A stretch of DNA of 27,283 bases. Origin: Candidatus Sumerlaeia bacterium. Its GTDB lineage: Bacteria > Sumerlaeota > Sumerlaeia > SLMS01. Made by a program: the position numbers and the translations under genes. Positions 2,542-27,012 of the stretch are shown here, piece after piece; position 1 is the stretch's first letter; each line of letters starts with the position of its first letter. The stretch spans positions 1-27,283 of the forward strand of contig JBBQYG010000043.1 in NCBI GenBank assembly GCA_038208905.1. The letters are read 5' to 3'. The notes beneath the pieces were generated by a model that saw only the letters and a program-made list of their open reading frames with translations, searched no databases and was not told where the DNA came from.

Positions 2542-2585
2542 GGGAAAAACGGGAAAGACGGAAACAGCGGGAAAGACGGAAAAAC

Positions 2586-2631
2586 AGGTGGGCGGGTGGC
2601 CGAAGGGGGTCACCCGCCCGCCTTGGTTGTT
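2586..2631 (+). terminator. Probable intrinsic terminator hairpin after the repeat-protein gene
   Basis: 16-bp stem AGGTGGGCGGGTGGCC (2586-2601) / GGTCACCCGCCCGCCT (2608-2623) with two G-U pairs, a 6-nt loop, then TGGTTGTT. Confidence 0.7.
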
Positions 2632-2705
2632 GACCATGCCACGTCGGCGCCGGAAGCATCGCAGCGCTCTTGGCAGTGCCACCTTGGGGACTCGTTCGAC
2701 CGCGC

Positions 2706-6770: not shown

Positions 6771-6932
6771 CTGTCGATCTCCTTCGCGTATGCGGAAGAC
6801 CCAATGAACACGGGCACGCCGCCCGATCAAGTGAATAAGGAGTGACGAAAATGGGGATGGACAGATTGGAGCGCAGGGTGGTGATCGGAGGGATTCGGAG
6901 TGCGCACAAATAGAAAGCCCCCGCTCGCTGAA

Positions 6933-7472: not shown

Positions 7473-7698
7473 CGTCTGGCGCTTTTGCCCGACGGATCTC
7501 CGCATCGAATTGGCCTGCGGCATCTTCGATATCCCGGCCAACAGCCCTCCAGTCGGACTCGAGCGCCTCGGCATCATTGCGCAGGAACTTGGGTCGATCA
7601 ATGGTGGGGATCGCGACCCTTACAGGTTGAGGAGAGAGAACCAGAGCGCTGCCGATTCCGGCCATCAGTGCGCTGTGCGAGCGACGCCGCGTGATCAT
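7459..7698 (-). CDS. Small hypothetical protein (79 aa), likely partner of the DUF2335 gene
   Basis: AAGGGG RBS-like sequence before ATG 7698, the motif DAEALESDWRAVGRDI, and a 14-nt overlap with the DUF2335 gene. Confidence 0.7.
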   Translation of the reverse strand: MITRRRSHSALMAGIGSALVLSPQPVRVAIPTIDRPKFLRNDAEALESDWRAVGRDIEDAAGQFDAEIRRAKAPDDVVR

Positions 7699-10800: not shown

Positions 10801-11064
10801 GCGATAGGTGGTGCCGCGATAGACGGCTTCGCCGCAGGGGAGTACCCCGATCTCGGCGCCGAAGAGAGGCCTCAACCCTGCCCGCGCCGCCGCTGCCGCA
10901 AAGGCCGGCGCGCGGCCCAGCGAGTTGACGTCGGTCAGCGCAAGGTAGCCTTGCTCGTCGCGCGCCGCCTCCCAGCAAAGCTCGTCCACCCGGGCGATGG
11001 ACTCGCCCAGGCTCAGTTCGCTGCGCGCGCCAAGATGAACAAAGGGGATGGGAGTTGCCGTCAC
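7858..11064 (-). CDS. dnaE: DNA polymerase III alpha subunit (DnaE) paralogue, divergent and predicted catalytically inactive
   Basis: Colinear with DnaE: PHP domain (FVHLGARSELS, ALTD, GAEI), YKERLNREFQEI, GLTRLDPLKFDLPF, KAHRP, HhH (GLLAIRGLS..AGAFD), an OB-like region and a C-terminal domain. Catalytic motifs are substituted (see findings). GTG start, no internal stops. Confidence 0.85.
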   Translation of the reverse strand: MTATPIPFVHLGARSELSLGESIARVDELCWEAARDEQGYLALTDVNSLGRAPAFAAAAARAGLRPLFGAEIGVLPCGEAVYRGTTYRARLLVESERGWRTLAKLVNRGRSAETPTRPPHVTFADLFEDPRGLVYLLGGERGEITRLIRDGEIEKLETLLGALAESIGRERVYLELPDPVGDGAPVARMLDVVAAHFGLGTVAIPEVACAHAADDAVFRFFSGSASAGRGPDARLVDLMRPVGERRHLLPRSLAGERFAAFPGALQNTLSIAQRCAGFALPQPERRFPQGNFGRGVDADSYIWNTSFARATDRYGELPTRYKERLNREFQEIVEAGLANAVVSLIRLHEELEHDGVQRGPGAGLFTNSVIASLMGLTRLDPLKFDLPFSLPAGLGKGSFPLLELSIPANQEAAAVGALQRLFEGQALAVGEWRPWKTSHALERAAELLGHDGKWAASIARSDAFQRAREEAASQPATWTPDADEPIESYAALAWLVHRMEGRARELVAAPGVYTFSVEPMETMVPRRLVSNAHDAPLVALSEWTSEELGRLRHGRLAYVHSPLLDLIGESTELARQQGDSAFSPDQTPPDDAATYRLLREGRTLGIPPLESPAIRRRLRVGQPADLHSLIAILKQEGPDIAGDDLPDFASILLCHVCAAIKAHRPLAFQAAALGQAAGDSRRTAALLEEMRSRLVRIAEIDINFSQWRWSVEGDAIRPGLLAIRGLSAAAAAEIAEKRRELQFGNLSDLCHRTDKSRLRPAHLRLLLRAGAFDHLGATRAELAGQLEELFPILKARRGGAPPTEDELSFFDRDGAWWLRENARPEDAATQPLDLAAEQASACGVVIGDFSPIAISHFLREARVQHPTRMPLKMDGHIVCIDGVPSGAEVDRERPGAVIADVGGVLVRASGELGLRLASEELGARRVMLTGKISRDSFQWELELESLVPLDEAMERAARVGSISLDLSQIPAENHRKLLQLLRQFPGATPLSMEWIPLEPARLFRAIASSTVLACPLMDSGLDRIAGASHWRMTTEAPLIGRNAEHRVRAFSRRLGLLARRKIAGMMGG

Positions 11065-11188
11065 GACCGCTCCGCCGCCGCGACCCCGCGGGGTGTGGAT
11101 GGCACTTTTCAGCGGTCATCCCTCCGAGGAGGGCACCATGTCAAGAAGGGGAAGCGGGGAAAAAAAAGAACGGTGGCAAGCGGGGGGA

Positions 11189-11686
11189 TCACGGCACGGC
11201 GGCGCCCTTTGTCTTTTCCACCCGGTACCGCCGGAAGGTTTCCTTCAGCAGTTCCGCGCAATCGGCCTCCAGCACCCCGGCCACAACCTCGACCTGGTGG
11301 TTGAATCGGCTGTTCTCCAGCAGGTTCAGGTCGGCACCACAGGCGCCCCAACGCGGATTGGCGGCGCCATAGACGAGGCGGGCGATACGGCCCTGTAGCA
11401 GAGCGCCCGCGCACATGGGGCAGGGCTCCAGCGTCACATAGAGCGTGGCGCCGTCCAGGCGCCAGTCGCCCTGGCGGGCGGCGGCCTCGCGGAGCGCCAG
11501 CACCTCGGCATGGGCCGTGGGATCGTCGAAGGTTTCCTTTCCATCGTGGGCGCCGCCCAGCAAGACGCCATCGCGCACGACGACGGCGCCGATGGGAACC
11601 TCTCCGCGAAGGGCGGAGAGGCGGGCCCAGCCCAAGGCCCGCCGCATCCAGTGGGCGTCCAGCTCCTCCGCTCCGGGCTGGCTCAC
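11189..11686 (-). CDS. tadA: tRNA adenosine(34) deaminase
   Basis: GEVPIGAVVV, DPTAHAEVLALR, WRL..ATLYVTLEPCPMCAGA and NHQVEV..GVLE..C motifs. The start overlaps the upstream stop (GTGA). Confidence 0.92.
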   Translation of the reverse strand: MSQPGAEELDAHWMRRALGWARLSALRGEVPIGAVVVRDGVLLGGAHDGKETFDDPTAHAEVLALREAAARQGDWRLDGATLYVTLEPCPMCAGALLQGRIARLVYGAANPRWGACGADLNLLENSRFNHQVEVVAGVLEADCAELLKETFRRYRVEKTKGAAVP

Positions 11687-13479
11687 AACGGCGGCTCGAT
11701 CCGGGCCACTGCGGACCGGGAAATGACCACGGCGCCGGAGCCCGTTGGCTCCAGAGTGATTGACGTGTCGGTGATCTCGGTCACGACGGCCTCCATCATC
11801 ATGCCCGATTTCAGGTACACCTTGCGCGTGATGGCCTCGGGAACAACGGCGCGTTCCTGGACCAGCGTGGGAACTGGGGTGGGTGTGGAAAACTTGAGCG
11901 GGCGGTTCTCAAGCGGATTGGTGACCACGACAGGGGTGGATTTAGTGCTGGGCGCCTCTGGCGGGGGGGGGTCCATGGGGCCAAACTGGCGGGATTCGCG
12001 CTCGCCCTTCAGAGGCTCGCCTGGGACGGGGCGACCCGAGGCGCCGGAGAATATCGTGTTGGGCAAGCTCGAATAAAACCCGCGCGAGGAGCCCCGGACC
12101 GGTTGTGCGTAGTGGCTGAGGATGGTTCCCAAGCCGCGCGAACGGGTGGTGCTAAACTGGTGGCTGAGGCCTTGAAGGAAGTTCTGGCCCCCGGAGACGG
12201 ATATCAGGCCGGCGGCGGGCCCCTTGTTTTTGTTCAGGAACGCCACCCACTCATCCAGAATATTGCCTTGGGCGCTGATTCGTTCGCTGATTTCAATGGT
12301 CAATTCATCAAGCCTGGAATCTTGACACCATGAAAGCCAGTCGGTCATGTGTCTGGAGTAGGACGGGGAATCGATCCACTGCTCCCAAGTGGCGGGCGGG
12401 GCTGCGCCACCGGTGCCGACCATCACCCCAACGCGGGTCCCGGGGCGGGCGCGCTGGATCGTGTCGCGGACGTCGCCGATTAGGTCCGACACGCGGGCGC
12501 GACGCCACGACGACCAGGTGGGATCGTCGGGAAGGGGGTTCCCCTGGCCGCCGACAACTCCGCGAAATCGGGAGACGGCCACGGGGCTGTAGCCCCATTC
12601 TGCCCCAGGATAGCCGACGCCGGTAAACAGATAGCCATCGGGTGCCAGCACGCTGTCGATTTCCTCCAGCACCCCCCTCAGATAGAAAACGGCGTCGGGA
12701 TTGCCCGGGTCCAGATGGATACGGTTGTCGGGGGCGACGATGGCGCCGGTGACGCTCTGGGCGATGAAGTCGGGCTGGTTTCCGAAGATATGGGTGGCGG
12801 CGGGCCGACTGCCCACGAGGGCGCTGTAGGAGGGTAGGAGCGAGACGACAGCGAAGATCTCGGTGCCGGGCGGGAGCGCGCGACGCAGTTCGGCGACAGG
12901 GTTGGGGAACGTGGGGTTGATGAACTGCATCGGCTTCTCGATGCGGGAGTCAAAGGCGACGCCAAAGGCCGTCCGTGCCTCGATATAGACGCGTGTGAAC
13001 CCGGCATCGCGGCAGTCCTTTGCCAGTTGCTGAATCTGCTCGACGGACTGAAAGCCGGCCTCGGTGGAAAGGACCATCAGGGCCTTGATCTCGCCCTGTG
13101 CGGCGGTGGGGGCGGTCGGCGGGGCGGTGGTGGGCGCGGCGGCGGGGATTGTGGCGGTATCGTCGAAAGGATTGGCCGGCTTGGCGGCCGGGAGGTCGAA
13201 GGGATTGGAGCCCTGGCCGGGGGCGGGCGTCGCGCTGAAGGGATCGGAGCCTGGGATCGGCGTGGGGACCGCCGTGGGCGGAAGGTCGAAGGGATTCTTG
13301 CCCGGTTCGGTCGATGGCGTGCCACCAAACGGATCGGTTTCCGGGGGCGGGGTAGCCGCGGGCTCCACAAAGGGATCAACGTCCTGTGACGGTGCCGAAG
13401 CAACGTGAAGCGGGAGGACGAGAAGCGCGGCGGCGGCCAGCCGAAGCCAACCGAAGCGGTGAGGTGCCCGTGATGCCAT
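11683..13479 (-). CDS. Secreted glycosyl hydrolase-like 10 (GHL10/DUF187) family protein with a Pro-rich N-terminal region and a small C-terminal beta domain
   Basis: Signal peptide and repeated [DN]PF motifs, then [52 protein letters not shown] and DWLSW, which match the GHL10 layout. Confidence 0.75.
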
Positions 13480-14374: not shown

Positions 14375-15510
14375 AGATCGGGATCCTGGGGGCCGGGCAG
14401 CTGGGCATGATGCTGGCCCAGGCGGGCCAGAAGATCGGCATGGAGTTCCGCTTCATGGACCCCGCGTCGGATATCGCCGCGCGCGGCCTGGGCGAACACG
14501 TGTGTGCGGCCTACGAGGACATCGACGCGCTGGAGCAGTTTGCGCGCGGGCTGGACTTCATCACATTCGAGTTCGAGAACGTCCGCATGGAGAGCGTGCG
14601 CTGGCTCGCCCAGCGCGTGCCCACGGCGCCATCGGCGGAGTGCCTGCGCGTGGCGGGCGACCGGCAATTCGAGAAGGACCTCTTCGCGGCGTGCGGAATT
14701 CCCACGGCGCCCTATGCGACGTTCTTCTTCCGCGACGAATACGACGAGGGCCTCCGCCGGATCGGCTATCCCGCCGTGCTGAAGACGCGGCGATTCGGAT
14801 ACGACGGCAAGGGCCAGCGCGTGATCCGCACGCCGGAGCAGGCCGAGGCGGCGTGGAAGGAACTGAACGGATTGCCGCTCTTTCTCGAGGGTTTCGTGGA
14901 CTTCGACCGCGAGGTGTCGCTGGTCTCCGCGCGCGATGCGAAGGGGAACACGCTGCACTATCCGCTGGTGGAGAACCATCACCGCGATGGCATCCTGCGC
15001 CTCACCTACGCGCCGGCGCCGGCGCTTTCCCCCGACTTGCAGGCGCTGGCGGAGGAGTATGCGCGCCGCGTGATGGAGAAGATGAATTACGTGGGCGTGC
15101 TGGCGATCGAGTTTTTCCAGGCGGGACGCCAGCTCATGGCCAACGAGATGGCGCCGCGCGTCCACAACAGCGGGCATTGGTCCATCGAGGGTGCCGCGAC
15201 GAGCCAGTTCGAGAATCATCTGCGCGCGGTGGCGGGCCTGCCGCTGGAGCCAACCAAGGCGATGGATTTCTCCGCGATGATCAACCTGATCGGAGAGATT
15301 CCCGACCTGGGCGAGGTGGCGAAGGAGCCCGACACATACCTTCACGACTATGGAAAGAAGCCCCGCGCCGGGCGCAAGGTGGGCCATATCACCGTGCTGG
15401 CGGAGACGCGCGGCGCGCTGGACCGGCGTATCTACAAGATCGCCGATCGACTGAAGGATCCCCGCTTCGACGACGTGATGGCGGGGCTGAAGACGCATGG
15501 CGGATGGTGA
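14371..15510 (+). CDS. purK: N5-carboxyaminoimidazole ribonucleotide synthase (ATP-grasp)
   Basis: [52 protein letters not shown] and YGK..R.GRKVGH motifs. ATGA overlap with purE. Confidence 0.97.
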
Positions 15511-17197
15511 CGCCGAATCCGCGGGGGGGACGCCGCGACTCGTCGCCGCGGCGACGTTCGCCACGTCCTTTTTGCCCGTGCTATTCGACTATCTGTCCGG
15601 CGGAAAGTGGCGGCACCTCCACTACCTAGCGGGCGACGCCTACTACTATCTGCTGATCGCGCGCAATGCGTGGCGCCACGGCGCGATCACCTATGATGGC
15701 GAGACGCCAACCAACGGGTTCCACCCGCTCTGGCAACTCACCGAGATCGCCGCGTTCCCGCTGGCGTGGGCTTTCGGCGACGGATATCTGGAGGCCGCGC
15801 TGCTGGGCGCGTTCTTCGCGACACTGCTGCTGGCGTCGGTGGCGCTCGCCGTCGTGGCGTGGGTTGCTTCGCGGCATTGCCCGCGCGCGGCATTCCTGCT
15901 TCCCGCGCTGCCGGCCGGTGTCTATACGGCGATGGCCTATCGCGACGCGGGTTCCCAGGCGACGCTGTGGATGCAGGCCAACGGGATGGAGAGCGCGCTC
16001 GGCATGGCGCTCTTCGCCGTGCTGCTGGTCCTTCTCTGCCGGGGGCCATTCCGCCTTGGCGCGACAGCCATGGGCACGACGCTGGGGCTGCTGGTGCTGA
16101 GTCGCCTCGATCTGATTTTCGTGCCACTGGCGCTGGGGATTGTCGCGCTGCCGGGCGCCATGAGGAGCCGGGCGGAGTTCCGGTCGCTCGCGATCACCAC
16201 CGCGGTCACGGCGGCCATTGTGGGCGCCTATCTGTTGGTGAACGTGGGTTACGCGGGGAGCGCTCTACCCGTCAGCGGCGCGGCCAAGACGACGTTCCCC
16301 GATCTGAATCCTGGCACCCTCGGGCGCGCGATCAACTACTTCGCGCAGCCGGAAATCCTGCGCGCGGACTACCGGAAGCGGACGGCGCAGCTGGTGATTC
16401 CGTTGCTGTTCGCGCTTGCATGGTTGATTGTATATCTTGCTATACAGTGGCGCGGGCGGGACGCACGCGCTACCATGTGGGGAAGGGCGCTGGTTGTCTG
16501 CCACCTCTCCGTGGTCCTGCGGCATGGATACGACCTGTGCTTCGTGCATGTGATTCACACGGACTACTGGTATTATCCGATTTCCCAAGTGATCGTCTTT
16601 CTTGGCGCGCTTTGGCTCGTGGAGCGCGCGCTCGGGCGATGGGCGCCGGGATTCCGGCCCGCGACCGCGCCCGCAGTGCTTGGCGTCTGCGCGTTGGAGG
16701 CCGTAGTCTTCATGCTAACGATCTGGCGAGAGCCCACGAACTACCCCTATGCGGCGTCACTGTGGGAGAGCCGCGAATCGATTGTCGCCCATTTCGGCGA
16801 CGCGCCGCCGCGAATGCTCGAGATGGAGGACGGAATCCTTGGATATACACTCGGATTTCCCGCGCTGTCTGCGACGGGGCTGAGCCTCGACCGCGAGGGC
16901 GCCGAGGCGCGGTCGCGCGGCGAGCTGCTCGATTACGCCTGGCAGCGGGGCTTCCGCACGCTGGCGATTACGCCGCGCTACCTGGATTTCGCCCGCGTCG
17001 CCGATGGGATGTCGGCGGAGCAGGCCACGACGCTGCTGCGCGGGCGATTCGACTGGATGCGCCGCGAGCGGGAGTACGGATTCGCGCTGGAGTACCTGTC
17101 GCAGGATGGCAGCGTCGCGTTCTTTGCGATCACGCAAGATGAGTTGCCGGCGAAACGGCAGAAAAAAGAAGTCACCACAGAGAACAGAGAGAAGTAG
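15497..17197 (+). CDS. Polytopic membrane glycosyltransferase, GT-C fold (DAY-type)
   Basis: GDAYYYLLIARN..YDGETPTNGFHPLW, NGMES, LSRLD and PVSGAAK motifs with multiple TM helices. 14-nt overlap with purK. Confidence 0.75.
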   Translation: MADGDAESAGGTPRLVAAATFATSFLPVLFDYLSGGKWRHLHYLAGDAYYYLLIARNAWRHGAITYDGETPTNGFHPLWQLTEIAAFPLAWAFGDGYLEAALLGAFFATLLLASVALAVVAWVASRHCPRAAFLLPALPAGVYTAMAYRDAGSQATLWMQANGMESALGMALFAVLLVLLCRGPFRLGATAMGTTLGLLVLSRLDLIFVPLALGIVALPGAMRSRAEFRSLAITTAVTAAIVGAYLLVNVGYAGSALPVSGAAKTTFPDLNPGTLGRAINYFAQPEILRADYRKRTAQLVIPLLFALAWLIVYLAIQWRGRDARATMWGRALVVCHLSVVLRHGYDLCFVHVIHTDYWYYPISQVIVFLGALWLVERALGRWAPGFRPATAPAVLGVCALEAVVFMLTIWREPTNYPYAASLWESRESIVAHFGDAPPRMLEMEDGILGYTLGFPALSATGLSLDREGAEARSRGELLDYAWQRGFRTLAITPRYLDFARVADGMSAEQATTLLRGRFDWMRREREYGFALEYLSQDGSVAFFAITQDELPAKRQKKEVTTENREK

Positions 17198-17222: not shown

Positions 17223-18350
17223 TCATCCTGGCGCGCGCGGCAGGATGTCTAGCTTCATGCGGATGATCGTCGGGTCATCCGTCCATGACTCGGATGCGGT
17301 GCCGTATATCTGCGTGCGGTTTGTCTTGCTGAAGACGAGGTCGAAGGCCTCGCTGGAGAGCGTGACGCTTTCATCCGCCGAAGCCGCCAGCGCGATCATG
17401 GCCTCGGAGATGGCACACTCCTCCCACGCGGGCTGGCGTGTTTCCGCGAGTGTTCCACTGCCGCCCGCGCGGATCGACTTTCCCGCCACGGGATCAATCT
17501 TGCCGGAGTTCCCGTGGATGCGGTCGCCGTCGCCGAGGAGCGAAACCTCGATCCCCGTGCGTCGCAGGCCGTCGCGGCGCGCGCGGTTCGTCTCGACGAT
17601 CAGCACCGAGCGCGGGCCGATGGCCTCGATGGCGTGCGTGGCGAGGTCGACGGACATGGCGCGGGCCTCCTCCACGCCGAAGCCGCGCTTCTCTCCGGTG
17701 ATCTCCATCGCGGCCACCAGGCGACCGAGCCGCCCGCGGACGAGGAAGTGCTGATCGACGGTGCCGTAGGGAAAGAAGCCCATGCCTCTGTCCACGCGGA
17801 AGCCCTCCTCGAGATCGGTGGAGAGCCCGTTGAGAAGGGCCTCTTCGCTCGGGCCTCCGCGGATGCACGGGTCGCACATCATGGCGGCGCCGGCGGAACT
17901 GCCGGAGATGACGCCGCCGCGATCCAGCACGCGCCACAGCGCCGTATATGCAACGGTGTCGCCGGTGTCGGGACGGAAGGCGCGGATGATGCGCGACTGG
18001 TCTCCGCCGACAAAGAAGATGGCGCGCTTCGCCTCGATCTGGGCCGCCTTCGCGGGATCGGAGGCATCGGCGACGCTGTCCATCGGGATGTCGATCAGCG
18101 TGGCGGTGCCGCCGCGCTCGTTGAAATCGGCCAAGTGCTCGGGACCCGACTCCTCGGGAATCCCGCTGGCGGTCAGAAGGACGCCGATCGGCGCGCCGGG
18201 TCCGGCCAGCTCCATCACGCGGCCATAGATCGCATCGTCGTGGGGGCCGGGGTTTCCGCCCGCGATCACCAGATGGCCGTTGCGGGGCGCGGTGGCGCAT
18301 CCCGTCAGCATCGCAAGTGTCAGCGCGATCGACAGGCAGCGATTCAGCAT
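17223..18350 (-). CDS. cphB: Cyanophycinase (peptidase S51 family), predicted lipoprotein
   Basis: GHLVIAGG, TASG.PE, IFFVGGDQSRI, nucleophile motif GSSAGAAMM, VDQHF..RGRLGRL and GFGVEE. Lipobox LTGC after ATG 18350, with a GGAAGGA RBS. Confidence 0.85.
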   Translation of the reverse strand: MLNRCLSIALTLAMLTGCATAPRNGHLVIAGGNPGPHDDAIYGRVMELAGPGAPIGVLLTASGIPEESGPEHLADFNERGGTATLIDIPMDSVADASDPAKAAQIEAKRAIFFVGGDQSRIIRAFRPDTGDTVAYTALWRVLDRGGVISGSSAGAAMMCDPCIRGGPSEEALLNGLSTDLEEGFRVDRGMGFFPYGTVDQHFLVRGRLGRLVAAMEITGEKRGFGVEEARAMSVDLATHAIEAIGPRSVLIVETNRARRDGLRRTGIEVSLLGDGDRIHGNSGKIDPVAGKSIRAGGSGTLAETRQPAWEECAISEAMIALAASADESVTLSSEAFDLVFSKTNRTQIYGTASESWTDDPTIIRMKLDILPRAPG

Positions 18351-19375
18351 GATTCCTTCCTCTTCTTTCCCTTGGGGAGGCCGACTTGCTTGGCGAGATC
18401 GGTCGCGAGGGACTCCGGTATCAGGTCTTCCGTGGACTCCATGCCCAAGGCTTCCTTGGTCTTGAGCCATTCCTCGAAGATCGGATCGAGGAGTGCGATG
18501 AAATTGCGCACGCGCGGCGGCAGGTACTGCCCTTCGCGGACGAGGAGACCGACCTCGCTCTTCTTCACGAGGTCCTTGATCTCAACCGCCACCAGCCGGC
18601 GGCGCTGGCGCAGGGTCGCGGTCTCCGCGACGATGCCAACTCCGACTCCGGCCTCCACGTAGGCGGAGATGACCTCCGAATTGCTCGTTTCCATGACGAT
18701 GTTGGGCTTCTTGATTCCCGCGCGGCCCAGGGCCTCGTCCACCAGATCGCGGTCGCCGCGCACATCTGGTTCCAGAAGAATGAGCGGCTCGTTCTCCAGG
18801 TCCTTCATGGAAATCTCCCGCCGCTTGGCCAGCGGGTGCCCCGGCGGGGCGATCATGACCATGCGGCTCTTCTTCCAGAGGACGTACTCCAGCTCGGGGA
18901 CGTCGGGGCGGCGGGTGGAGATGCCAAAGTCGATGGTGCCCTCGCCCACCATTGTCTCCACCACCTCGGCGGGCGCGTTGAGCGCCGTGAGGGACACCGT
19001 GGGATTCTTCTGTCTATACAGCTTGATGGGATCCACAAGGCGGTGGATCAGCACGGTCTGGGTCGCGGCGAAGGTCACATTGCCGCCCTTGCCGTCGAAG
19101 AACATCCCCCGCCACTCGCGCATGCGCTGAAAGACCTCGATGGCCTCCTTGAGGAAGATCAGTCCCTCGCGCGTGAGCAGGACGGTGGAGCTTCCCTGCC
19201 GCTTGCGATAGAGCGACACGTTGATCTCCGCCTCGAGTTGCTTGATGCGGTACTGGATCGATTCCGGGGTGACATATTCCTCCGTGGGCGACTCGAAGTA
19301 GAGCGCCTCGGCGGCCTTCTTGAAGGTGCGGTGCCGGGCGACGTAGATGAGCGCCTGAAGCTGCTTGTAGTTCAC
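18344..19375 (-). CDS. LysR-type transcriptional regulator with an atypical HTH
   Basis: NYKQLQAL..VA..TFKKAAEAL..IKQLEAEI..LTREG winged HTH, and a substrate-binding domain (GTIDFGI, PPGHPLA, YVEAGVGVGIV). GAGGAG RBS 9 nt before GTG 19375. Confidence 0.9.
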   Translation of the reverse strand: MNYKQLQALIYVARHRTFKKAAEALYFESPTEEYVTPESIQYRIKQLEAEINVSLYRKRQGSSTVLLTREGLIFLKEAIEVFQRMREWRGMFFDGKGGNVTFAATQTVLIHRLVDPIKLYRQKNPTVSLTALNAPAEVVETMVGEGTIDFGISTRRPDVPELEYVLWKKSRMVMIAPPGHPLAKRREISMKDLENEPLILLEPDVRGDRDLVDEALGRAGIKKPNIVMETSNSEVISAYVEAGVGVGIVAETATLRQRRRLVAVEIKDLVKKSEVGLLVREGQYLPPRVRNFIALLDPIFEEWLKTKEALGMESTEDLIPESLATDLAKQVGLPKGKKRKESC

Positions 19376-19596: not shown

Positions 19597-20817
19597 TCAA
19601 TGAGTGGGAAACTTACCCGCGCTTTCGCGCTTGAAGTCTTCCATGTCTTCAATGGGCACAGTGTCGGTGCCGCGCCATTCGGCATCGGGGGCCAGATCGC
19701 GCCAAAGGTCGATGTAGGCTTCGGCGATGGCGCCGATCTCGTGGGAACCGCGGGCGGAATCCCGCGCCGCCTCGGCGATGTCGCGGCGGAGATCGGCGTT
19801 TTCCACCAGTCGCAAGATGGCCGCCGCCATCGCCGCTGGATCGGCGGGCGGCACCAGCAGCGCCGTCTTGCCGTCGATCGCGACCTCGGGCACGTTGCCC
19901 GTGGCCGTCGCCACCACGGCGGCGCCGGTCGCCAGCGCATCGGGCACCGTCAGCGTGCAGCGGTTGGCGCGGCTGGGATACACGACGACGTCGGCGGTGC
20001 TGAAAAGCTTGGGCATCACCTCCGACACGTGGCCGATGAAGCGGACGGATTCGGCTAGGCCGCGCGCGGCGACGATCTCTCCCGCGTGCTCGCGCAGGGG
20101 TCCTTCGCCCACGATGAAGAGCCTTGCGGCGGGAACGCGGCGGTGGACCTGTGCCATCGCATCGAGGAGATCCAGCACGCCGCTCCCCTCTGTGAAGTCC
20201 GAAGCCGAAACGATCGCGGGAATGTCGGCCTCGATACCGAGGAGAAGGCGATAGCGCTGCTTGTTCTTCTCGGAGAGCGGGAACAACCCCACGGCGTCCA
20301 CCCCCGTGGGGATGACACGCATTCGCGCGGGATCAAGGCCGCGGGGCGCGAGGGACGCGCGGGTGGCGGCGGAAACGGCGACGAACGCGGCGACGCGGCG
20401 GCGGGTGCGACGCTCGCAGAGTGCCTGCCACGTCCGCCGCAGGATCGGGATCGAGGCGAAGTCGCAGGTATCGTAAATGACCGACACCAAGGGTATGTTG
20501 GCCCGCCCGCCCTGAAACCAGCGCGCCGCCAAATTGGGAAACGTGCCGTGGGCCTGGAGCAGGTCCGCCCGATCCGAGCGGGAGAGGAAGCGCTCCGCGG
20601 CCTCCCGCAGACGACGCGGCGAGCGCGATGCGTCGGCGGGGATCAAGGTGGTGCCGATGCCCATCTCGCGGAGCCGCTCCGAGAGGGGGCCGTCCTCGCC
20701 AAACGCGGCCACGCTCAACTGCAACTCGCGCATCGGCGACCACCTCAGGCAGAGGCGGTACAGATGCAGCCCGGGAACATCCTCCCGGAAGGAATCGAGT
20801 AACAGCAAAACCCGCAT
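19597..20817 (-). CDS. Glycosyltransferase family 4 (GT-B) protein, divergent
   Basis: MRVLLL, GPLSERLREMGI, FVAVSAAT, VIPTGVD, LFIVGEGPLRE, VRFIGHV, ADVVVYPS, VVATATGNVPEVAIDG.TALLVPPAD motifs. Confidence 0.85.
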   Translation of the reverse strand: MRVLLLLDSFREDVPGLHLYRLCLRWSPMRELQLSVAAFGEDGPLSERLREMGIGTTLIPADASRSPRRLREAAERFLSRSDRADLLQAHGTFPNLAARWFQGGRANIPLVSVIYDTCDFASIPILRRTWQALCERRTRRRVAAFVAVSAATRASLAPRGLDPARMRVIPTGVDAVGLFPLSEKNKQRYRLLLGIEADIPAIVSASDFTEGSGVLDLLDAMAQVHRRVPAARLFIVGEGPLREHAGEIVAARGLAESVRFIGHVSEVMPKLFSTADVVVYPSRANRCTLTVPDALATGAAVVATATGNVPEVAIDGKTALLVPPADPAAMAAAILRLVENADLRRDIAEAARDSARGSHEIGAIAEAYIDLWRDLAPDAEWRGTDTVPIEDMEDFKRESAGKFPTH

Positions 20818-20911
20818 GGCTTGCTCCCAAGAAAGGAGCATCCACAAGCGGCGGCAGGGTGGAACAGGAAAAAGAGCGCGTCGGTGACAAGCGTCACCAG
20901 CCCCGCGACCG

Positions 20912-20949
20912 AAAAACGAGATGCCCCGGGCTCGGCCCGGGGCATCTCG
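20912..20949 (-). terminator. Rho-independent terminator of the Hsp70-kinase gene
   Basis: Perfect 15-bp stem CGAGATGCCCCGGGC (20917-20931) / GCCCGGGGCATCTCG (20935-20949), followed on the minus strand by TTTTT, about 36 bp after the stop codon. Confidence 0.85.
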
Positions 20950-20985
20950 GAATAGACATTACAGGCCCGGCAGGGGGCACGTTGC

Positions 20986-23900
20986 CTACGGCCGCTTCTG
21001 CACGTTCAACGCGTCGAAGATTTCATCCACGGACTGGAAGCGGTCCCCGGCGTTCTTGGCGACGCACTTCATGATGACGGCCTGGAGGGCCGGCGAGACG
21101 CGGTCGGGGAGCGGCGGCGGCGCGGTGTGGATATGGTGGTATTCGATGTTGCCGAGGTAGAAGGGCGGGTGGCCGCTGGTCAGCTCGTACATCATGATGC
21201 CCAGGGAGTAGATGTCGGTGCGGGCGTCAACGCCCTCGCCGGTGATCTGCTCGGGGGCCATGTAGAGCGGCGTGCCGATGATGGCTGTGCCGCTCTTGGT
21301 GGAATCGTCGCCCTTGAGGATCTTGGCGATGCCGAAATCGGTCACCTTCACGCTGTTCTGCTTGGTGATCATGATGTTGGCGGGCTTGATGTCGCGGTGG
21401 ATGATGTTTAGTTTGTGGGCATAGGCGAGGGCGTCGCAGATCTGGAGGAAGAAATAGACGAGCTGGTCCTCCTGAAAGGAGGTGCGCTCGGCGAGGACGC
21501 GCTTGAGGTCGGTGCCCTCGATGTACTCCATCGAGATGAAGCGCTTGGATCCGCTCTCGAACATGTCGTGGATGCGGACGATGTACGGGTGGCTGAGTTT
21601 CTTCGCCGCGCGGGCCTCGCGCTTGAAGCGCTCGACGGCGCCCGGGTCGGAGCACAGGTAATCGTTGAGCACCTTGAGGGCGACGACTTCCTCAAGCGTC
21701 TTGTCGCGGGCCTTGTAGATGATACCCATGGAGCCGCGGTTGATTTCCTCGATGATGACGAACCGGGGATCGGAGAGGATCGCGGCCTTGGAGTGGTCGG
21801 TTTCGTCCTGCTGCATCTTGATGCGATAGCGCAGCTTCTTGATCTTGGCGGCGATGTCGCGGTAGTCCTCGCCTTCGGCGGCCAGGTGCTCGTACACGGT
21901 GAGGGAGTTGTTGAGCTGGCCGGTGTTCTCCATGTCGGTGGCGAGGCGATAGAGGATGTCGCGGATTTCCTCGTTCTGCTTGAGCTGCTTGAATTTCTGC
22001 CAGGCGAGGAAGTGCAGGTTCTTCTGCCAGTGGCAAAGGCCAAGGATCTTGAGGGCGCGGGTCTCGTAGGCCTGACTGGTCTGGAGCTCCTGGAGGAGTT
22101 CGATGGCCTCGTCCACGCGGTTGGCCTTGAGGTAGATCTTCACGAGCTTGAAGCGGGCGCCCATGTCGGCGGACTTTGAGACGCGGATCTTGTACAGACG
22201 CTCGAGCTCGGCGCTGTCCTTGTCCGACGGGTCGAGCTTGGTGGCGGCATCGAGGTCGTCGCAGGCGCCCTCCAGGTCGCCGGCGGCTTCGCGCAGGGCG
22301 GAGCGGTCGCGGCGGAGCGAGGCTGGATCGGGGAGGTTGGCAAGCGCCATGTCGAAGAGGGAGGAGACGTCTTCCTTGCGCTTTGCGCCATAGTTGCCAA
22401 CGAGGATCTTGAGGGCGGCGCGGGCACGCTCCGACTCGCCCGAGGCGATGAGCAGCAGGGCGCGGGCGCGGAGGACCGGGAAGCGGCCATCGGTGAGCCA
22501 GGGCTCGGCGGAAAGCGCGGCGATGGCCTTGGCGTAGAGTTCCTTTGCGTCCTCGGAGGCGTCGTTGTCGGCGGCGTAGTCCAGAGCGGAATCCACGACG
22601 CCGGGCCAGTCAACGTCCTCGCCAAGATCGCCGAGGCCACGGAGGTCCACCTCCCTGGTTTCCGGCGACTCCATGTGCATCTCCTGTGTGTCGCTCTTGC
22701 TGGACTGCGACTCATAGGTGGAGGTGAAGTCGTCCCGGCGGGGGGGATCCGCGGGGGGCATCGGCGGGGTAGCCGCCTTGTGCATGTCGGTCTTGGGGTT
22801 GGTGACGCTTTCCGGCGGGATGGGACTGAGGCCGGACCCAGGCGATCCATAGCGCCGCGGGGAGGGAAGCGACCTTACGTCGCTGTCGGAGGGGCGGGGG
22901 ATGTGCTCCGTGGAGGGCTGCGGCTGGGGTGCCTTGTGGGCGAGGGGGACGACCTCCGAACTCTTGTGGCTCGCCGGGGAAACCGGCATTGTAGGCGCGT
23001 TGCCGGGGGTGGCGTCGCCGAGGACGGCGAAGTTGTCGGGGGTGCGGGGCCGTACGCTGGAATCGGCCTTGTTGCTCCTGACCGAGGAGGAGTCGTCCTT
23101 CTTGAGTTCCTGAGGCATTTGGCCCGGCGGCGAGGACAGCTTGCGACCGCCACCGGTTGGCGCGGGGGCGCCGCCCTTGGTGGTGGAGCGACCGCGGCGC
23201 GCGCGCGCCTTCTTGCGGGATTTCTTTTCCGCCTCGTCCAGCTCGCTGTGGACGATCTTCAGCGTCTTGGCAGCGCCGGAGGCGAGTTCCTCCGCGGAGA
23301 TTTCCATCACGCCGTCTGCGTTGACGAAGAAGGTGACGCGGATGCGCGCGGATCCCTTGGGGGCGGCGGGAATGTCGGCCAGCGTGAACTTGCCGAGGCT
23401 GCGGTTTTCGGAGGCCTCCGCGCTCTCGCCCTGGAGGATGTGAACGTTGACGAAGGTCTGCGCCTCCTCGGTGGTTGTGAAATTCTTGGCGGCCTTGATG
23501 GGGATGGTGGCATTCTTCTCGATGATGCGGGAGAATTTGCCGTCCTTGACCTCGATGCCGAGCGAGTGGGGCGACACGTCCAGGAGCGTGACCTCCTGAA
23601 TATTGCCGCTGAAGACGCCGGCCTGCGTCGCCGCGCCCAGGGCCACCACTTCGTCGGGGTTGATGCCCTTGAAGGGCTGGAGCCCGAAGAAGTCCTCCAC
23701 CGCGTCCTGGACGAGGGGGATGCGCGTGGATCCGCCGACGAGGATGACCTTGTCCACGTCCTTCTTGGAGATGTGGGCGTCCTCGATGGCGCGCTTGCAG
23801 CAGCGGATGGTGCGCGTCACGAAGCTGTCGATCAGTTCCTCGAACTCGGCGCGTGAAATTTGGCGCTCAAGGTGAAGCGGCTGGCTGTTGCGATAGGCGA

Positions 23901-24747
23901 TGAAGGGGAGCGTGATCATCGTGGAGGAGGTGGTGCTCAACTCGCACTTGGCCTTCTCGGCCACCTCTTTCAGGCGGCGAAGGGTCACGGGGTCCTTGGT
24001 CAGATCGACGCCATGCTGCTCCTCGAATTCCTCCACGATCAGGTGGACAATCACGTTGTCCAGATCGTCTCCGCCAAGCTGGGTGTCCCCGGTGGAGCAG
24101 AGTACCTCGAAGGTCTTGTCGGAAATTTCCAGAATCGTCACGTCGAAGGTGCCGCCGCCGAAGTCGTAAACGGCGATCACCTCGTCCTCGCTGGTGCTCT
24201 TGCCGATGCCATAGGCGAGGGCCGCGGCGGTGGGCTCGTTGAGGAGGCGCAGGACTTCCAGGCCGGCAAGGCGGGCGGCCTCCATCGTGGCGGTGCGCTG
24301 GCTGTCGTCGAAGTTGGCGGGCACGGTGATAACGGCTTGGCGGACTTCCTGGCCAAGGTAGGCTTCGGCGGATTCCTTGAGCTTCTTGAGGACGAGGGCG
24401 CTGATCTGCTCCGGGCTGTAGCCGAAGCCGTTGATGTCGATGAGGAGCTTGCCTTCGTGATCGACGATGTTGAAGGGGAGCTGGCCGCCGCGCTCCTCGG
24501 CCTGCTCGAAGTCCATTCCCATGATGCGCTTGATGCTGCTGATCGTGCGCAGGGGATTGGTGGCTGCCTGGCGCCGCGCAATCTCGCCGACGATGCACTC
24601 GTTGTCGTCCAGGAAGGCGACCACGCTGGGAGTCTTGTTGGAGCCTTCCTGGTTGGGGATCACGACCGGCTCGTCGCCCTCGATAATGGCGACGACGGAG
24701 TTTGTGGTCCCTAGGTCGATGCCGATGATGCGCGCGTCTTCGTGCAT
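20986..24747 (-). CDS. dnaK: Hsp70 (DnaK-like) / Pro-Ser-rich linker / TPR / Hanks-type Ser/Thr kinase fusion protein (a DnaK paralogue, not the canonical chaperone)
   Basis: Hsp70 motifs GIDLGTTNS, TPSVVAF, NEPTAAALAYG, VYDFGGGTFDVTIL, LGGDDLD, VILVGGSTRIP and LLDVSP with a beta substrate-binding subdomain. Kinase motifs VALK, HRDIKPANI, KVTDFGIAK, GTPLYMAPEQ and DIYSLG. One continuous 1253-aa ORF. Confidence 0.93.
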   Translation of the reverse strand: MHEDARIIGIDLGTTNSVVAIIEGDEPVVIPNQEGSNKTPSVVAFLDDNECIVGEIARRQAATNPLRTISSIKRIMGMDFEQAEERGGQLPFNIVDHEGKLLIDINGFGYSPEQISALVLKKLKESAEAYLGQEVRQAVITVPANFDDSQRTATMEAARLAGLEVLRLLNEPTAAALAYGIGKSTSEDEVIAVYDFGGGTFDVTILEISDKTFEVLCSTGDTQLGGDDLDNVIVHLIVEEFEEQHGVDLTKDPVTLRRLKEVAEKAKCELSTTSSTMITLPFIAYRNSQPLHLERQISRAEFEELIDSFVTRTIRCCKRAIEDAHISKKDVDKVILVGGSTRIPLVQDAVEDFFGLQPFKGINPDEVVALGAATQAGVFSGNIQEVTLLDVSPHSLGIEVKDGKFSRIIEKNATIPIKAAKNFTTTEEAQTFVNVHILQGESAEASENRSLGKFTLADIPAAPKGSARIRVTFFVNADGVMEISAEELASGAAKTLKIVHSELDEAEKKSRKKARARRGRSTTKGGAPAPTGGGRKLSSPPGQMPQELKKDDSSSVRSNKADSSVRPRTPDNFAVLGDATPGNAPTMPVSPASHKSSEVVPLAHKAPQPQPSTEHIPRPSDSDVRSLPSPRRYGSPGSGLSPIPPESVTNPKTDMHKAATPPMPPADPPRRDDFTSTYESQSSKSDTQEMHMESPETREVDLRGLGDLGEDVDWPGVVDSALDYAADNDASEDAKELYAKAIAALSAEPWLTDGRFPVLRARALLLIASGESERARAALKILVGNYGAKRKEDVSSLFDMALANLPDPASLRRDRSALREAAGDLEGACDDLDAATKLDPSDKDSAELERLYKIRVSKSADMGARFKLVKIYLKANRVDEAIELLQELQTSQAYETRALKILGLCHWQKNLHFLAWQKFKQLKQNEEIRDILYRLATDMENTGQLNNSLTVYEHLAAEGEDYRDIAAKIKKLRYRIKMQQDETDHSKAAILSDPRFVIIEEINRGSMGIIYKARDKTLEEVVALKVLNDYLCSDPGAVERFKREARAAKKLSHPYIVRIHDMFESGSKRFISMEYIEGTDLKRVLAERTSFQEDQLVYFFLQICDALAYAHKLNIIHRDIKPANIMITKQNSVKVTDFGIAKILKGDDSTKSGTAIIGTPLYMAPEQITGEGVDARTDIYSLGIMMYELTSGHPPFYLGNIEYHHIHTAPPPLPDRVSPALQAVIMKCVAKNAGDRFQSVDEIFDALNVQKRP

Positions 24748-24839
24748 GGGTGGTTAGCTCTGCCGTGGTTCCCGGGGGGGAACGGGTCGGATGGGGTCTT
24801 CAGATGCTTCCCCCTGTGGGAGGGGATACTGCGACACAA

Positions 24840-24883
24840 CGCTGCCGGTGGAGAAAGATTACTCCACCGGCAGCGGATGTCAA
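24840..24883 (-). promoter_or_regulatory. Sigma70-like promoter overlapped by a perfect 14-bp inverted repeat
   Basis: Minus strand reads TTGACA (24883-24878)-16 nt-TAATCT (24861-24856). The inverted repeat is CGCTGCCGGTGGAG (24840-24853) / CTCCACCGGCAGCG (24862-24875). Confidence 0.6.
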
Positions 24884-24925
24884 AAGGGTTTGTACTTACC
24901 GCCGATCAGTCATCCGCATGCCCGA

Positions 24926-25762
24926 TCAGGTACCGATGTCTAGCAACAGGGCCTTGAGGGCCGAAAGGTCAGCCGCGTCGATGGTGGACGTGGATCCCAC
25001 CAGATTGGAATTCCCCATGGCGATGGGGTCGGCCGTGGGGGCGTTGGCGATGTACTCGATGATGCGGACAAGATCGGCTGCGTCCAAGGCGCCGTCGCCG
25101 TTGGAGTCGCCGAGGAACCTGCGCACGATGCGGAATCCGTCGAAGTCGGCGCCGCCCTGAGCCAAGTTCTTGAACCCGTTCAGGCCGTTGACCGTGGAGT
25201 CGCGGAAGCCGAGCGGGGCCGTGTTGCGCTTGGTGTTGTTGACCCAGATTTCCCAGCTCTTGGCGTCGAAATCGAGCTGGAGCGTGACCTTGTACCAGTT
25301 GTTGGAGACGAGCGAAATGCCAAGGCTGGTGGGCTCCGCGCCCGCCGCCTTGGTGCCGTCCCACACTTCGATGCCGTTTGTCTGGCCGAAGTGGACGATG
25401 GCGGAGGCCTCGGTGACGGGGTAGTTGGCGTTGGCGAGCGTGACGCTGCTGCCGGCGCCGCGGAAGTAGCCCTCCACCCACACGGTCTTGCCCGCGCGGG
25501 AGGTTTCCTGGGCGGTGAGGCTAAAGTCGAGGATGGCGCCGGAGCCGAGCTGGACGAACTGGCTGCTGGCCTGTGCGCCGCTGCCGCTCACGACGTTGAC
25601 GGGGGGATTCTCCACCGTCCAGTTGGGAAGGTTGGTGGGGAAGGCCCCCGCCGCGAAGCCCTCGTTTGATTCAAAGCCGCTTTGGTAAACGGGAAGGGCA
25701 ACCGCCCCCGCCGCCGCGATCATCGTCGCGCAGGCCCCTGCAACCGTCAGCAATGTCTTCAC
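24926..25762 (-). CDS. Secreted beta-sandwich protein with a C-terminal dockerin type I-like domain
   Basis: Signal peptide MKTLLTVAGACATMIAAAGAVA, a ConA/LamG-like WYKVTLQLDFDAKSWEIWVN segment, and dockerin-like LGDSNGDGALDAADLVRI..IDAADLSALKALLL. GAAAGG RBS before the GTG start. Confidence 0.8.
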   Translation of the reverse strand: MKTLLTVAGACATMIAAAGAVALPVYQSGFESNEGFAAGAFPTNLPNWTVENPPVNVVSGSGAQASSQFVQLGSGAILDFSLTAQETSRAGKTVWVEGYFRGAGSSVTLANANYPVTEASAIVHFGQTNGIEVWDGTKAAGAEPTSLGISLVSNNWYKVTLQLDFDAKSWEIWVNNTKRNTAPLGFRDSTVNGLNGFKNLAQGGADFDGFRIVRRFLGDSNGDGALDAADLVRIIEYIANAPTADPIAMGNSNLVGSTSTIDAADLSALKALLLDIGT

Positions 25763-25881: not shown

Positions 25882-26634
25882 CTATCTTTCCATTAGCTTC
25901 TCGAAAACCCGGGCATAGGGCGGCAATCCGTCGGAACTATTGCCATAGTAGTACCCATAGGTGACGGAAGATTCCCTTTCATCCGAGTTGCTTTGGTGAA
26001 CCACGCGCCCACCCACGCGTTCCGTTGCCACGATCGCATAGTCGATCTTCCCCGCAATCCGGCCGCGTGGCAGCCCCAGCAGGGCGGGAATCTGGCCCAG
26101 ATCGGCGATGCCGAACAAGTTTAGGCCATAGGAATAGCGGTACTGCCGCGTGCTCGCGCCGGACAATTCACCACGCACCACCAGATCGTACCGCCGCACG
26201 TCTGTCCCCGGCGAAAGGTCGCGCCACAGATCCACGCCATCGGCCACGCCTTGCTCCAGAAGCTGCCTGGCGGCGGCGCGTTCGACCGATTCCGCCAGCC
26301 CGCCAGAGAGGCCCGTTTCCCCCGCAAAGAGGAACCGCTCCCCCCAGGCAAACGCCGACTCGGGGAATTCGGTGCGGCGGTCGGCGACGAAGAAACTCGC
26401 CAGCCCCAGCACGGGGATCTGGCTGATGGCAAAGGCCTCGTTGGCATTAGCTCCGCGAACCCGCGCGTCACGGAACGGCATCACCAGCGCCCGGGTGCGT
26501 GCACTATTCCCGATCGACGAATGCGGCGGCTGCCCGCCCCCTGCCAATGGTGTTACCGATACCGCCCGGCACCCCCCGGCAAGGAACGCCGCCGCAATCA
26601 ATACGGATAGGAAAAGGCGACGAGTCGGAGACAT
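25882..26634 (-). CDS. Hypothetical lipoprotein
   Basis: MSPTRRLFLSVLIAAAFLAGGC lipoprotein signal, followed by VMPFRDAR and YDLVVRGEL alpha/beta patterns. Confidence 0.65.
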   Translation of the reverse strand: MSPTRRLFLSVLIAAAFLAGGCRAVSVTPLAGGGQPPHSSIGNSARTRALVMPFRDARVRGANANEAFAISQIPVLGLASFFVADRRTEFPESAFAWGERFLFAGETGLSGGLAESVERAAARQLLEQGVADGVDLWRDLSPGTDVRRYDLVVRGELSGASTRQYRYSYGLNLFGIADLGQIPALLGLPRGRIAGKIDYAIVATERVGGRVVHQSNSDERESSVTYGYYYGNSSDGLPPYARVFEKLMER

Positions 26635-26815
26635 GGGATGTCCTTGGGCGCGGGATCGAGACGTGCGCAGGATGGAGCGGGGGGGTGGAGACGGGCAATC
26701 ATGAAGGGCGGGTCGCGGGGATCGACTGGCGAAGGGCGTAGGTTGCCACCGCGATTTGGAGCCAAAGCCATCGTGCGCGAGCAAACCTTGGGGAAAGGCA
26801 GTGGCGCGCTTTTCC

Positions 26816-27012
26816 TTGCACCCAGATTCATCCGGGTGGGAACGGATCTGCAACTGTTGAGAGCGCGCTTTAGCGTGCTTTCTCCGGCGGGAAGTCGGTG
26901 ATGGGGACGAGTGGGCCCATTCAGGAAGCACGCTAAAACGCGCTTGGAATTATTACTTGGTCGGCACCCCCGGATAAATCCGGGGGCAACAAGTGGCCCG
27001 CTGAAGCGGGCT
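26816..27012. repeat. Nested palindromic REP/REPIN- or MITE-like element
   Basis: Layout A(26816-26840)-B(26861-26880)-B'(26926-26945)-A'(26964-26989), with A/A' and B/B' imperfect inverted copies, plus palindrome GCCCGCTGAAGCGGGC at 26996-27011. Confidence 0.6.

Follow-up and report, generated by a model that had tools for sequence, protein, structure and literature searches.

Switches in which the occupancy of Hsp70 by unfolded proteins controls a signalling output include BiP–IRE1/PERK, DnaK–sigma32 and Hsp70–HRI. Bacterial Hsp70 controls stress responses by titrating transcription factors, and eukaryotic Hsp70 controls stress kinases as a separate partner. In these chaperone-titration switches, chaperone and effector are separate proteins, whereas they are covalently linked in the product of the gene considered here, which lies at 20986..24747 (minus strand, stop codon included) in a stretch of Sumerlaeota DNA of 27.3 kb and about 66% G+C. 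This whole stretch of 27,283 nucleotides (nt), called the window, corresponds to contig C43 in a draft genome of 4.24 Mb and 301 contigs. The gene encodes 1253 amino acids (aa), arranged as a lid-less Hsp70, a disordered linker, a tetratricopeptide repeat (TPR)-like domain and a Hanks-type Ser/Thr kinase. Judged by its sequence, the product is most likely a soluble, single-polypeptide, chaperone-coupled Ser/Thr kinase. Its homology with the titration switches is limited to Hsp70 and the kinase fold, and the likeness would lie in the proposed logic.

The closest described proteins share parts of this architecture. A sequence catalogue without experiments lists 'Kinase + HSP70' in Pirellula (gi 32474490; Krupa & Srinivasan 2005, PMC1262709), and a language-model atlas contains HSP70+Pkinase clusters from Planctomycetota and Actinomycetota. 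Like the Sumerlaeota fusion, these proteins unite an Hsp70 with a Hanks kinase on a single chain and are known from sequence alone, but their kinase is N-terminal and their Hsp70 C-terminal, they are 790-930 aa long with no TPR in between, and their Hsp70 domains branch elsewhere, which suggests that the fusions arose independently. DnaK paralogues were reviewed in 2026, among them lid-less derivatives with added domains and unknown function; the review has no kinase fusion, and the word 'kinase' appears there solely in the title of a reference (PMC13580251). Those of Myxococcus and Anaeromyxobacter are likewise extra paralogues beside a canonical DnaK, with the lid deleted and domains added; many of these derivatives have lost the linker or the basket, whereas the Sumerlaeota fusion retains both. 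PknB, PknA and Stk1 have the kinase fold and motifs in common with the fusion kinase, which differs from them in being soluble and C-terminal, with neither a transmembrane helix nor PASTA domains. PknG and other soluble kinase-TPR proteins combine a Hanks kinase with a TPR domain, much as the fusion does with its TPR-like one, but have no Hsp70. In PknG, the TPR is located past the kinase.

In the passages found, neither of two papers on Sumerlaeota genomes refers to the protein (PMC8092238, PMC10866078). The main text of a Planctomycetota kinome paper does not mention Hsp70 or DnaK, and its supplementary domain tables may list such architectures (PMC11032199). The literature on 'Hsp70-kinase' yielded only the human DNAJ-PKAc oncoprotein. 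A first-pass annotation of the window had pointed to no characterised protein of this kind; none was found in the literature either, but the pairing of Hsp70 and kinase as such has been catalogued since 2005 and exists in other layouts in several phyla. What is undescribed in the literature searched is the phylum-wide family with lid-less Hsp70, linker, TPR and kinase, its linker motif and the recurrence of the fusion.

Domain architecture of the fusion protein

The gene is a single open reading frame (ORF) with an ATG start and zero internal stops, as proposed by the first-pass annotation, which had placed Hsp70, linker, TPR-like region and kinase in one frame and had located linker motif, helical region and kinase correctly to within a few codons. 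It had also seen no transmembrane helix, and the highest 19-residue Kyte–Doolittle mean (1.2) is indeed too low for one; the protein is predicted to be soluble and cytoplasmic.

The Hsp70 module, encoded like all other parts of the gene on the minus strand, consists of a nucleotide-binding (ATPase) domain (NBD; residues 1-384, 23596..24747), the interdomain linker EVTLLDVSP (residues 385-393, 23569..23595, where 23573-23595 had been given before) and a beta substrate-binding domain (SBD-beta; residues 394-509, 23221..23568). The Pfam HSP70 profile (PF00012) matches residues 7-509 with 631 bits against a cut-off of 20.6 bits, and the matched profile positions, 1-507 of 599, span these three parts and leave the lid uncovered. 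An ATPase domain, a hydrophobic interdomain linker and a beta-sandwich peptide-binding domain place the module in the Hsp70 superfamily. The NCBIfam DnaK models match only to about position 510 of 596-625; of the two canonical-DnaK equivalogs, NF001413 exceeds its cut-off (689 versus 648 bits) and TIGR02350 misses it (680 versus 822.55 bits), and the full canonical architecture with a helical lid is not present. The claim of a "complete" Hsp70 therefore holds as far as the end of the beta domain and fails for the lid. Past the beta domain, only one short basic helix is seen in a structure model of the orthologue P0049, so that the helical lid is absent; this loss holds for the protein and across its family.

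The classical Hsp70 residues were mapped onto the window protein by alignment to E. coli DnaK (PDB 2kho). An alignment of 96 orthologues shows no variation at K73, P143, R151, R167, N170, E171, T173, D195 and G197-D202, nor at L388, P393, F423, Q430 and V433. D11, K73, E171, D195 and G197-D202, invariant or nearly so, are the catalytic and phosphate-loop residues, Pro143/Arg151 the allosteric pair of Hsp70, and Arg167/Asn170/Thr173 the surface by which canonical DnaK meets J-domains; F423, Q430 and V433 belong to the peptide pocket. At two arch positions above the peptide channel, E. coli DnaK has Met and Ala where the fusion has Lys401 and Thr426. The family consensus of the interdomain linker is EVVLLDVTP; that of E. 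coli DnaK reads DVLLLD (PMC13580251). With canonical DnaK (E. coli; 2kho, 4b9q, 7kzu), the fusion thus has the ATPase domain, the linker, the beta domain and key residues in common, and it differs in the missing lid and C-terminal tail, the changed arch, its separate clade, the lack of an adjacent dnaJ or grpE and about 740 additional residues, the kinase among them. By its residues, the N-terminal module is a DnaK-derived Hsp70 that has retained catalytic, allosteric, J-surface and pocket positions and lost the lid. The genome encodes five full Hsp70s, of which the canonical one (893 bits) has a lid and is 51% identical to the fusion Hsp70, which is a dedicated paralogue and not the orthologue of the housekeeping DnaK.

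An AlphaFold2 (AF2) model of the full-length orthologue P0049 (1181 aa; 96-sequence alignment; mean predicted local distance difference test score (pLDDT) 82, predicted template modelling score (pTM) 0.53) has a confident Hsp70 to about residue 500, with beta strands at 385-495, followed by 140 residues at pLDDT <50, a confident all-helical domain and the kinase. Its Hsp70 superposes best on ATP-state, domain-docked DnaK (7kzu, 4b9q; template modelling score 0.79-0.90, root-mean-square deviation (rmsd) 4.6-5.0), while the rmsd to ADP-state DnaK (2kho) is 17.6.

The disordered linker (residues 510-712, 22612..23220) contains 15% Pro and 14% Ser, 36% Ser, Thr and Pro together, and nine S/T-P sites; the low-complexity linker of roughly 190 aa noticed earlier is thus a disordered Pro/Ser-rich segment of about 200 aa. 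Across the 96 orthologues, the corresponding region (window residues 500-745) measures 136-310 aa, with a median of 207, and Ala, Pro, Ser, Arg and Glu are abundant in it. A conserved Arg/Lys-rich stretch (residues 507-522, 23182..23229) stands directly past the beta domain, and a short linear motif, N-F-A-V-L-G-D-A-T in the window (residues 572-580, 23008..23034), is conserved among the orthologues as F-x-x-[LVI]-x-[DE]-T. Its Phe is found in 78/96, an L/V/I at +3 in 85/96 and a D/E at +5 in 57/96, and a simple regular expression of the motif matches 46-47 of the 96 linkers, against 3-4 expected from shuffled ones. The motif is a candidate intramolecular ligand of the beta domain or the TPR domain. 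A different nine-residue stretch (535-543) reaches a pLDDT of about 62 within the linker of the P0049 model.

The TPR-like domain (14 helices, residues 716-958) and a connector helix (965-990) occupy 21778..22602. All Pfam TPR matches, at residues 798-912, are below their gathering scores (best TPR_9, 27.2 versus 35). A second AF2 model, of window residues 705-1253 (23-sequence alignment, pLDDT 85, pTM 0.49), shows 14 paired antiparallel helices at residues 716-958 with a pLDDT around 90, so that the earlier call of a TPR-like region at 22610-21830 (residues 713-972) was right. The connector ends at low confidence and no fixed orientation of TPR domain and kinase is predicted in this model. 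Only the fusion family has the Trp-rich block around residues 897-940, in which W907 and W916 lie. Fold searches with the TPR-kinase model as a single query returned lists filled by kinases.

The kinase domain (residues 995-1248, 21004..21765) is a PknB/PknA-like RD kinase with a conserved activation-loop Thr1150. The Pfam Pkinase profile (PF00069) matches residues 998-1238 with 197 bits against a cut-off of 31.7 bits, and the Gly loop, the VALK motif with Lys1025, HRD (1117-1119), DFG (1137-1139) and APE are all present, the last four as read earlier from the sequence. The Gly loop, K1025, E1044, HRD, KPAN, D1137/G1139 and GTPLYM-PE are invariant in the 96 orthologues; the full motif set and the kinase fold make this a Hanks-type Ser/Thr kinase. 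The model superposes on 4eqm with a Z score of 31.0 (rmsd 1.9 over 247 residues) and on 1mru with 30.1, and the nearest structures are PknB of S. aureus and M. tuberculosis and PknA, at 35-38% identity. The Stk1/PknB model NF033483 matches only residues 993-1248, with 298 bits against a cut-off of 450 bits, so that the protein is not a member of that family. Mean identity to the window protein over 17 orthologues is 0.63 for the NBD, 0.64 for the SBD-beta and 0.65 for the kinase, 0.40 for the TPR domain and 0.17 for the linker, which is essentially unalignable (window residues 510-740). Both enzymatic halves look intact and are under purifying selection.

Distribution and descent

A protein search found more than 100 proteins of 1150-1317 aa with both HSP70 and Pkinase domains; the named ones are from Sumerlaeota/BRC1 and annotated plainly as 'molecular chaperone DnaK'. 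The TPR-kinase part was used to search 75 species genomes of the phylum. A match of at least 47% identity exists in 59/75; for 46 of these genomes the frame is open (1155-1368 aa), and for the other 13 it is cut short. Sixteen loci were fetched from 16 genomes of at least 11 families, and all 16 are one ORF of 1149-1336 aa with the Hsp70 N-terminal and the TPR-kinase C-terminal. Among the 16 genomes without a strong match, two (G074, from another class, and G010) also hold the fusion in frame, which brings the fused loci fetched from other genomes to 18/18, the single-contig genome G066 among them; in G037, a Hsp70 part with 71% identity lies in a short frame. An orthologue is thus evident in about 62/75 Sumerlaeota species genomes. 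The fusion is truly absent from at least some genomes of the phylum: four (G069, a single-contig genome, and G072, G014 and G064) have only Hsp70s of 587-664 aa, and in another four (G012, G018, G022, G028) the best matches are TPR-kinase paralogues without Hsp70, a tally that leaves out the other five genomes of family f16. Since these genomes are relatives, such counts are not independent events.

In a maximum-likelihood tree of 27 Hsp70 domains, the 12 fusion domains, which represent 12 genomes, cluster together (99/97), and the other-class genome G074 branches first among them. Canonical DnaK forms a separate group (95/94), and two more groups of paralogues also lie outside the fusion cluster. 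This topology indicates a single fusion event near the base of the phylum, followed by vertical inheritance.

Twenty public runs, from 16 studies of freshwater, sediment and microbial mat, contain near-identical DNA, and no RNA run is recorded among them. In run X1, which may be the source sample of the window, a 4620-nt contig spans 21379-24950, and in run X2, from a different study, a contig spans 22437-23649 and bridges the whole linker, with beta-domain sequence on one side and TPR sequence on the other. Contigs break at 21366-21408, in the HRD region, with depth spikes, as other kinases share those sequence words. The draft state of the genome, with its 301 contigs, invites the suspicion that an assembly chimera, a missed stop or a frameshift has joined two genes, and the first-pass annotation had itself raised a chimeric junction or separate genes in relatives. 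A haloarchaeal cluster of a different Hsp70-kinase protein also has split records of 723 and 485 aa. With every fetched orthologue fused in frame, that of the single-contig genome G066 included, contigs of two runs bridging the junction and more than 100 database proteins of like length with both Pfam domains, an artefact of this kind is next to inconceivable.

The TPR-kinase half has relatives of its own. Two paralogues in the same genome, of 1732 aa (contig C5:9202-14400, minus strand; L020:1202-6400) and 1408 aa (contig C29:119-4345, plus strand; L021:119-4345), end in the same TPR-kinase cassette, with 34-40% identity, and have a beta-propeller-like region and/or long TPR arrays where the fusion has its Hsp70. 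Soluble proteins of 690-800 aa with TPR and a C-terminal kinase are found in Nitrospirota, Acidobacteriota and Myxococcota, with homologous last TPRs and a 'Y-[RK]-D-V' helix preceding the kinase. The TPR array with a C-terminal kinase is thus a widespread family. As such relatives share the last repeats and the pre-kinase helix, Hsp70 and linker were added onto a pre-existing soluble TPR-kinase. The Hsp70 occupies the position at which cassette relatives have protein-binding scaffolds, that is, the putative input-domain position. The statement in the first-pass annotation that bacterial Hanks kinases are usually N-terminal does not carry over to this genome and other phyla, where a C-terminal kinase past a TPR array is common. 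Among the kinase-cassette matches listed outside the phylum, which follow generic kinase patterns, an Hsp70 stands upstream in 1/79 loci, and this rarity is weak evidence that the layout is absent there. An N-terminal TPR/SNAP-like array with a C-terminal kinase was also seen in the individual loci L047, L050, L052 and L086, from Nitrospirota, Marinacidobacterales and Myxococcales.

A profile search of 1.84 billion cluster representatives returned about eight full-length representatives of the fusion family together with fragments, and proteins of other layouts: Hsp70-N/kinase-C without TPR between (805-1205 aa, seven checked), one Chloroflexota protein with TPR past the kinase, and kinase-N/Hsp70-C proteins of 823 and 928 aa. 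Four other two-stretch matches were rejected as eukaryotic tandem Hsp70s without kinase. In a FastTree phylogeny of Hsp70 domains from fusions (midpoint-rooted, SH-like supports), those of other layouts fall at four or more separate places, which suggests that Hsp70-kinase fusion arose repeatedly and independently; such recurrence argues for a general functional link. Of the ten kinase-bearing fusions that were scanned, eight are lid-less too, their HSP70 match stopping at position 500-535 of the profile. The linker motif is no shared feature of eight Hsp70-N/kinase-C proteins of other layouts, in which there were two chance-like matches. One protein of this kind, P0165 of the haloarchaeon Salinigranum halophilum, is a 1205-aa 'Hsp70 family protein' with a C-terminal kinase; its 90% cluster includes a separate 723-aa Hsp70 and a 485-aa kinase from the same species, so that it is annotated both fused and split and calls for caution, and its inter-domain stretch has a second beta-domain-like segment.

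Possible coupling of chaperone and kinase

As the fusion is real and ancient and both halves are under purifying selection, a functional coupling of Hsp70 and kinase is the natural reading, and we infer from the sequences that client binding by the Hsp70 is coupled to kinase output. The mechanism tentatively favoured, though at somewhat short of an even chance, is a sensor that works by titration, in which client occupancy of the Hsp70 would switch the tethered kinase. The first-pass annotation had likewise suggested that the Hsp70 could sense unfolded peptide and gate the kinase, which is plausible. It is preferred because the allosteric machinery is kept, the loss of the lid suits fast sampling, the Hsp70 stands at the input position and the linker motif is conserved. 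The Hsp70 module would be the input domain. In the resting state, the lid-less beta domain, or the TPR domain, would grip a segment of the protein's own linker, for which F-x-x-[LVI]-x-[DE]-T is the candidate, and the gripped linker would keep the kinase monomeric or inactive. Unfolded clients, loaded via a J-protein encoded elsewhere, would compete for the Hsp70 site in an ATP-dependent cycle, and the freed kinase would trans-autophosphorylate its activation loop and the linker and phosphorylate downstream targets. Overall, this would make the protein a one-component bacterial counterpart of the BiP–IRE1/PERK or DnaK–sigma32 titration switches.

Several points weigh against this picture. The linker motif is missing or degenerate in roughly one fifth of the orthologues, and acidic residues come after it; DnaK-type binding sites favour basic flanks. 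The motif is docked on no domain in the full-length P0049 model (pLDDT <50), and AF2 predicts no fixed contact between the modules, either in that model (pTM 0.53) or in the one of the window TPR-kinase (pTM 0.49). No conserved neighbour was found in 17 compared loci, hence no context of a J-protein, phosphatase or substrate gene, and no functional study of such fusions was found in the literature, with subscription-only papers and supplements outside its scope. A lid-less DnaK retains its clients less well, and the loss of the lid fits a fast sensor and a mere tether equally.

The same facts are accommodated just as well by a recruitment model, in which the Hsp70 would not regulate the kinase but capture extended or unfolded client segments, or partners of the chaperone network, for the tethered kinase to phosphorylate; clients could thereby be marked for sorting or degradation, or co-chaperones tuned. 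The apparently intact peptide pocket and ATP cycle are as expected for it, the long flexible tether without a predicted fixed interface suits a 'fly-casting' kinase, and the paralogues place protein-binding scaffolds at the same N-terminal position, but the conserved motif and the basic stretch inside the linker are left unaccounted for, and the loss of the lid means short client dwell times. Human oncogenic DNAJ-PKAc, which is reported to gain function by bringing Hsp70 to the kinase, offers a precedent (PMC6533061). Recruitment is regarded as possible, if on the unlikely side. The chaperone may instead be the output, with the kinase autophosphorylating linker or Hsp70 to tune a dedicated holdase, or with the fusion acting as an Hsp110-like partner of canonical DnaK, which is retained alongside in the genome. 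The nine S/T-P sites of the linker and its content of Ser, Thr and Pro point that way, phosphorylation is known to regulate Hsp70s (PMC13215673), and the 2026 review proposes an Hsp110-like role for NBD-containing DnaK derivatives (PMC13580251). Unlike those derivatives, however, the fusion keeps linker and peptide basket, and its TPR-kinase cassette is also found behind other N-terminal parts, an indication that the output these proteins share is the kinase; this version is unlikely. Both the recruitment and the kinase-regulated-chaperone readings fit nearly as well as the sensor.

A variant in which the Hsp70 detects foreign protein and the kinase triggers abortive infection, as an anti-phage or conflict sensor, was part of the first-pass annotation. 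The kinase domain does match the PADLOC models PD-T4-6 and mad6 (E 1e-80 to 1e-86) and the NCBIfam models MADS6 and PglW, and Hsp70 components are present in some predicted conflict systems (PMC7159879). All these system-model matches, however, are restricted to the kinase domain (residues ~993-1248), the MADS6 and PglW scores are far under their cut-offs (145.7 versus 460 and 75.7 versus 990), the six scanned neighbours have no PADLOC match and the 17 loci share no neighbour, so that the protein belongs neither to PD-T4-6 nor to MADS Mad6 or BREX PglW. A vertically inherited gene that is nearly universal in the phylum, with G074 of another class branching first, is unlike patchy, mobile defence genes. 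A role in defence is therefore disfavoured and very improbable.

Returning to the titration sensor, its boldest form is rather doubtful: a one-polypeptide sensor of proteotoxic stress in Sumerlaeota, whose ATP-driven lid-less Hsp70 would free its own pseudo-substrate motif when unfolded proteins accumulate and so activate the kinase, with the fusions of other phyla marking a general axis. If true, bacteria would have in this protein a parallel to the unfolded-protein-response kinases, with covalent wiring, and an unrecognised prokaryotic signalling axis from Hsp70 to Ser/Thr phosphorylation would be marked by the independent fusions of Planctomycetota, Chloroflexota, Actinomycetota and a haloarchaeon. 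An ancient covalent Hsp70-kinase fusion that recurs independently in several phyla may serve as a 'Rosetta stone' for a direct prokaryotic link from chaperone to phosphorylation. With two ATP sites and a tether in one protein, it is also a compact system in which to study how the binding of clients to an Hsp70 becomes a signal. The automatic label 'molecular chaperone DnaK' conceals a whole family of putative signalling proteins.

Flanking signals and the rest of the window

The gene has its own terminator-like hairpin, as annotated before, at 20917..20949 (minus strand), 37 nt past the stop codon, with a 15-bp stem of 12 G-C pairs and a T run. The candidate promoter of the first-pass annotation was not confirmed: a sigma-70 scan of 20500-25300 returned zero promoter-like sites, and a perfect TTGACA found by eye at 24883-24878 is accompanied by a weak -10. 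Directly after this TTGACA, between the stop of the upstream gene (24926) and the fusion start, lies a hairpin with a 14-bp stem (24840..24875, minus strand); the whole element sits 51 nt past the stop codon of that upstream dockerin-like gene. Locus L022, from the same family, has TTGACT and an 11-bp hairpin with a different stem sequence in the same place. The hairpin at 24840..24875 probably terminates the upstream gene; alternatively, it could be an operator that overlaps the promoter of the fusion gene. At window position 24774, 27 nt upstream of the start codon and outside the ORF, one base is absent in contigs of 3/4 runs (X1, X2, X4).

The neighbours in the window include a GT4 glycosyltransferase, a LysR regulator and the dockerin-like protein, whose gene is common to only three close loci. 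As noted before, neither DnaJ nor GrpE was found in the 26 window ORFs scanned; the seven J-domain and three GrpE matches of the genome are all on other contigs, and the genome holds at least 33 Hanks kinase domains. On contig C83 of the same genome (G000), at 8084-11849, an Hsp70 paralogue in a 592-aa frame adjoins GrpE (9851-10303) and a J-domain protein (11688-11849). By gene content, this cluster looks like a dedicated paralogous chaperone operon, and orthologues of its Hsp70 form a long-branched clade in the Hsp70 tree.

Elsewhere in the window, a 1068-aa DNA polymerase III alpha-like ORF occupies 7858-11064 (minus strand). Its Pfam scores (PHP 72, DNA_pol3_alpha 43 and HHH_6 72 bits) are unusually weak, which suggests a divergent polymerase of the DnaE/DnaE2 type, and a TadA-like deaminase lies upstream of it at 11189-11686. 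Long ORFs of 349-846 aa at 1-5920 (plus), 15497-17197 (plus), 17223-18470 (minus) and 25882-26931 (minus) match no Pfam family at E <= 0.001, or only TPR below threshold, and some may be shadow frames, the sequence being high in G+C. Between 6001 and 8000, the G+C content falls to 0.60, against 0.65-0.72 around it, and in this region lie an OB-fold protein at 5925-6830 and, at 6933-7601, a DUF2335 membrane protein.

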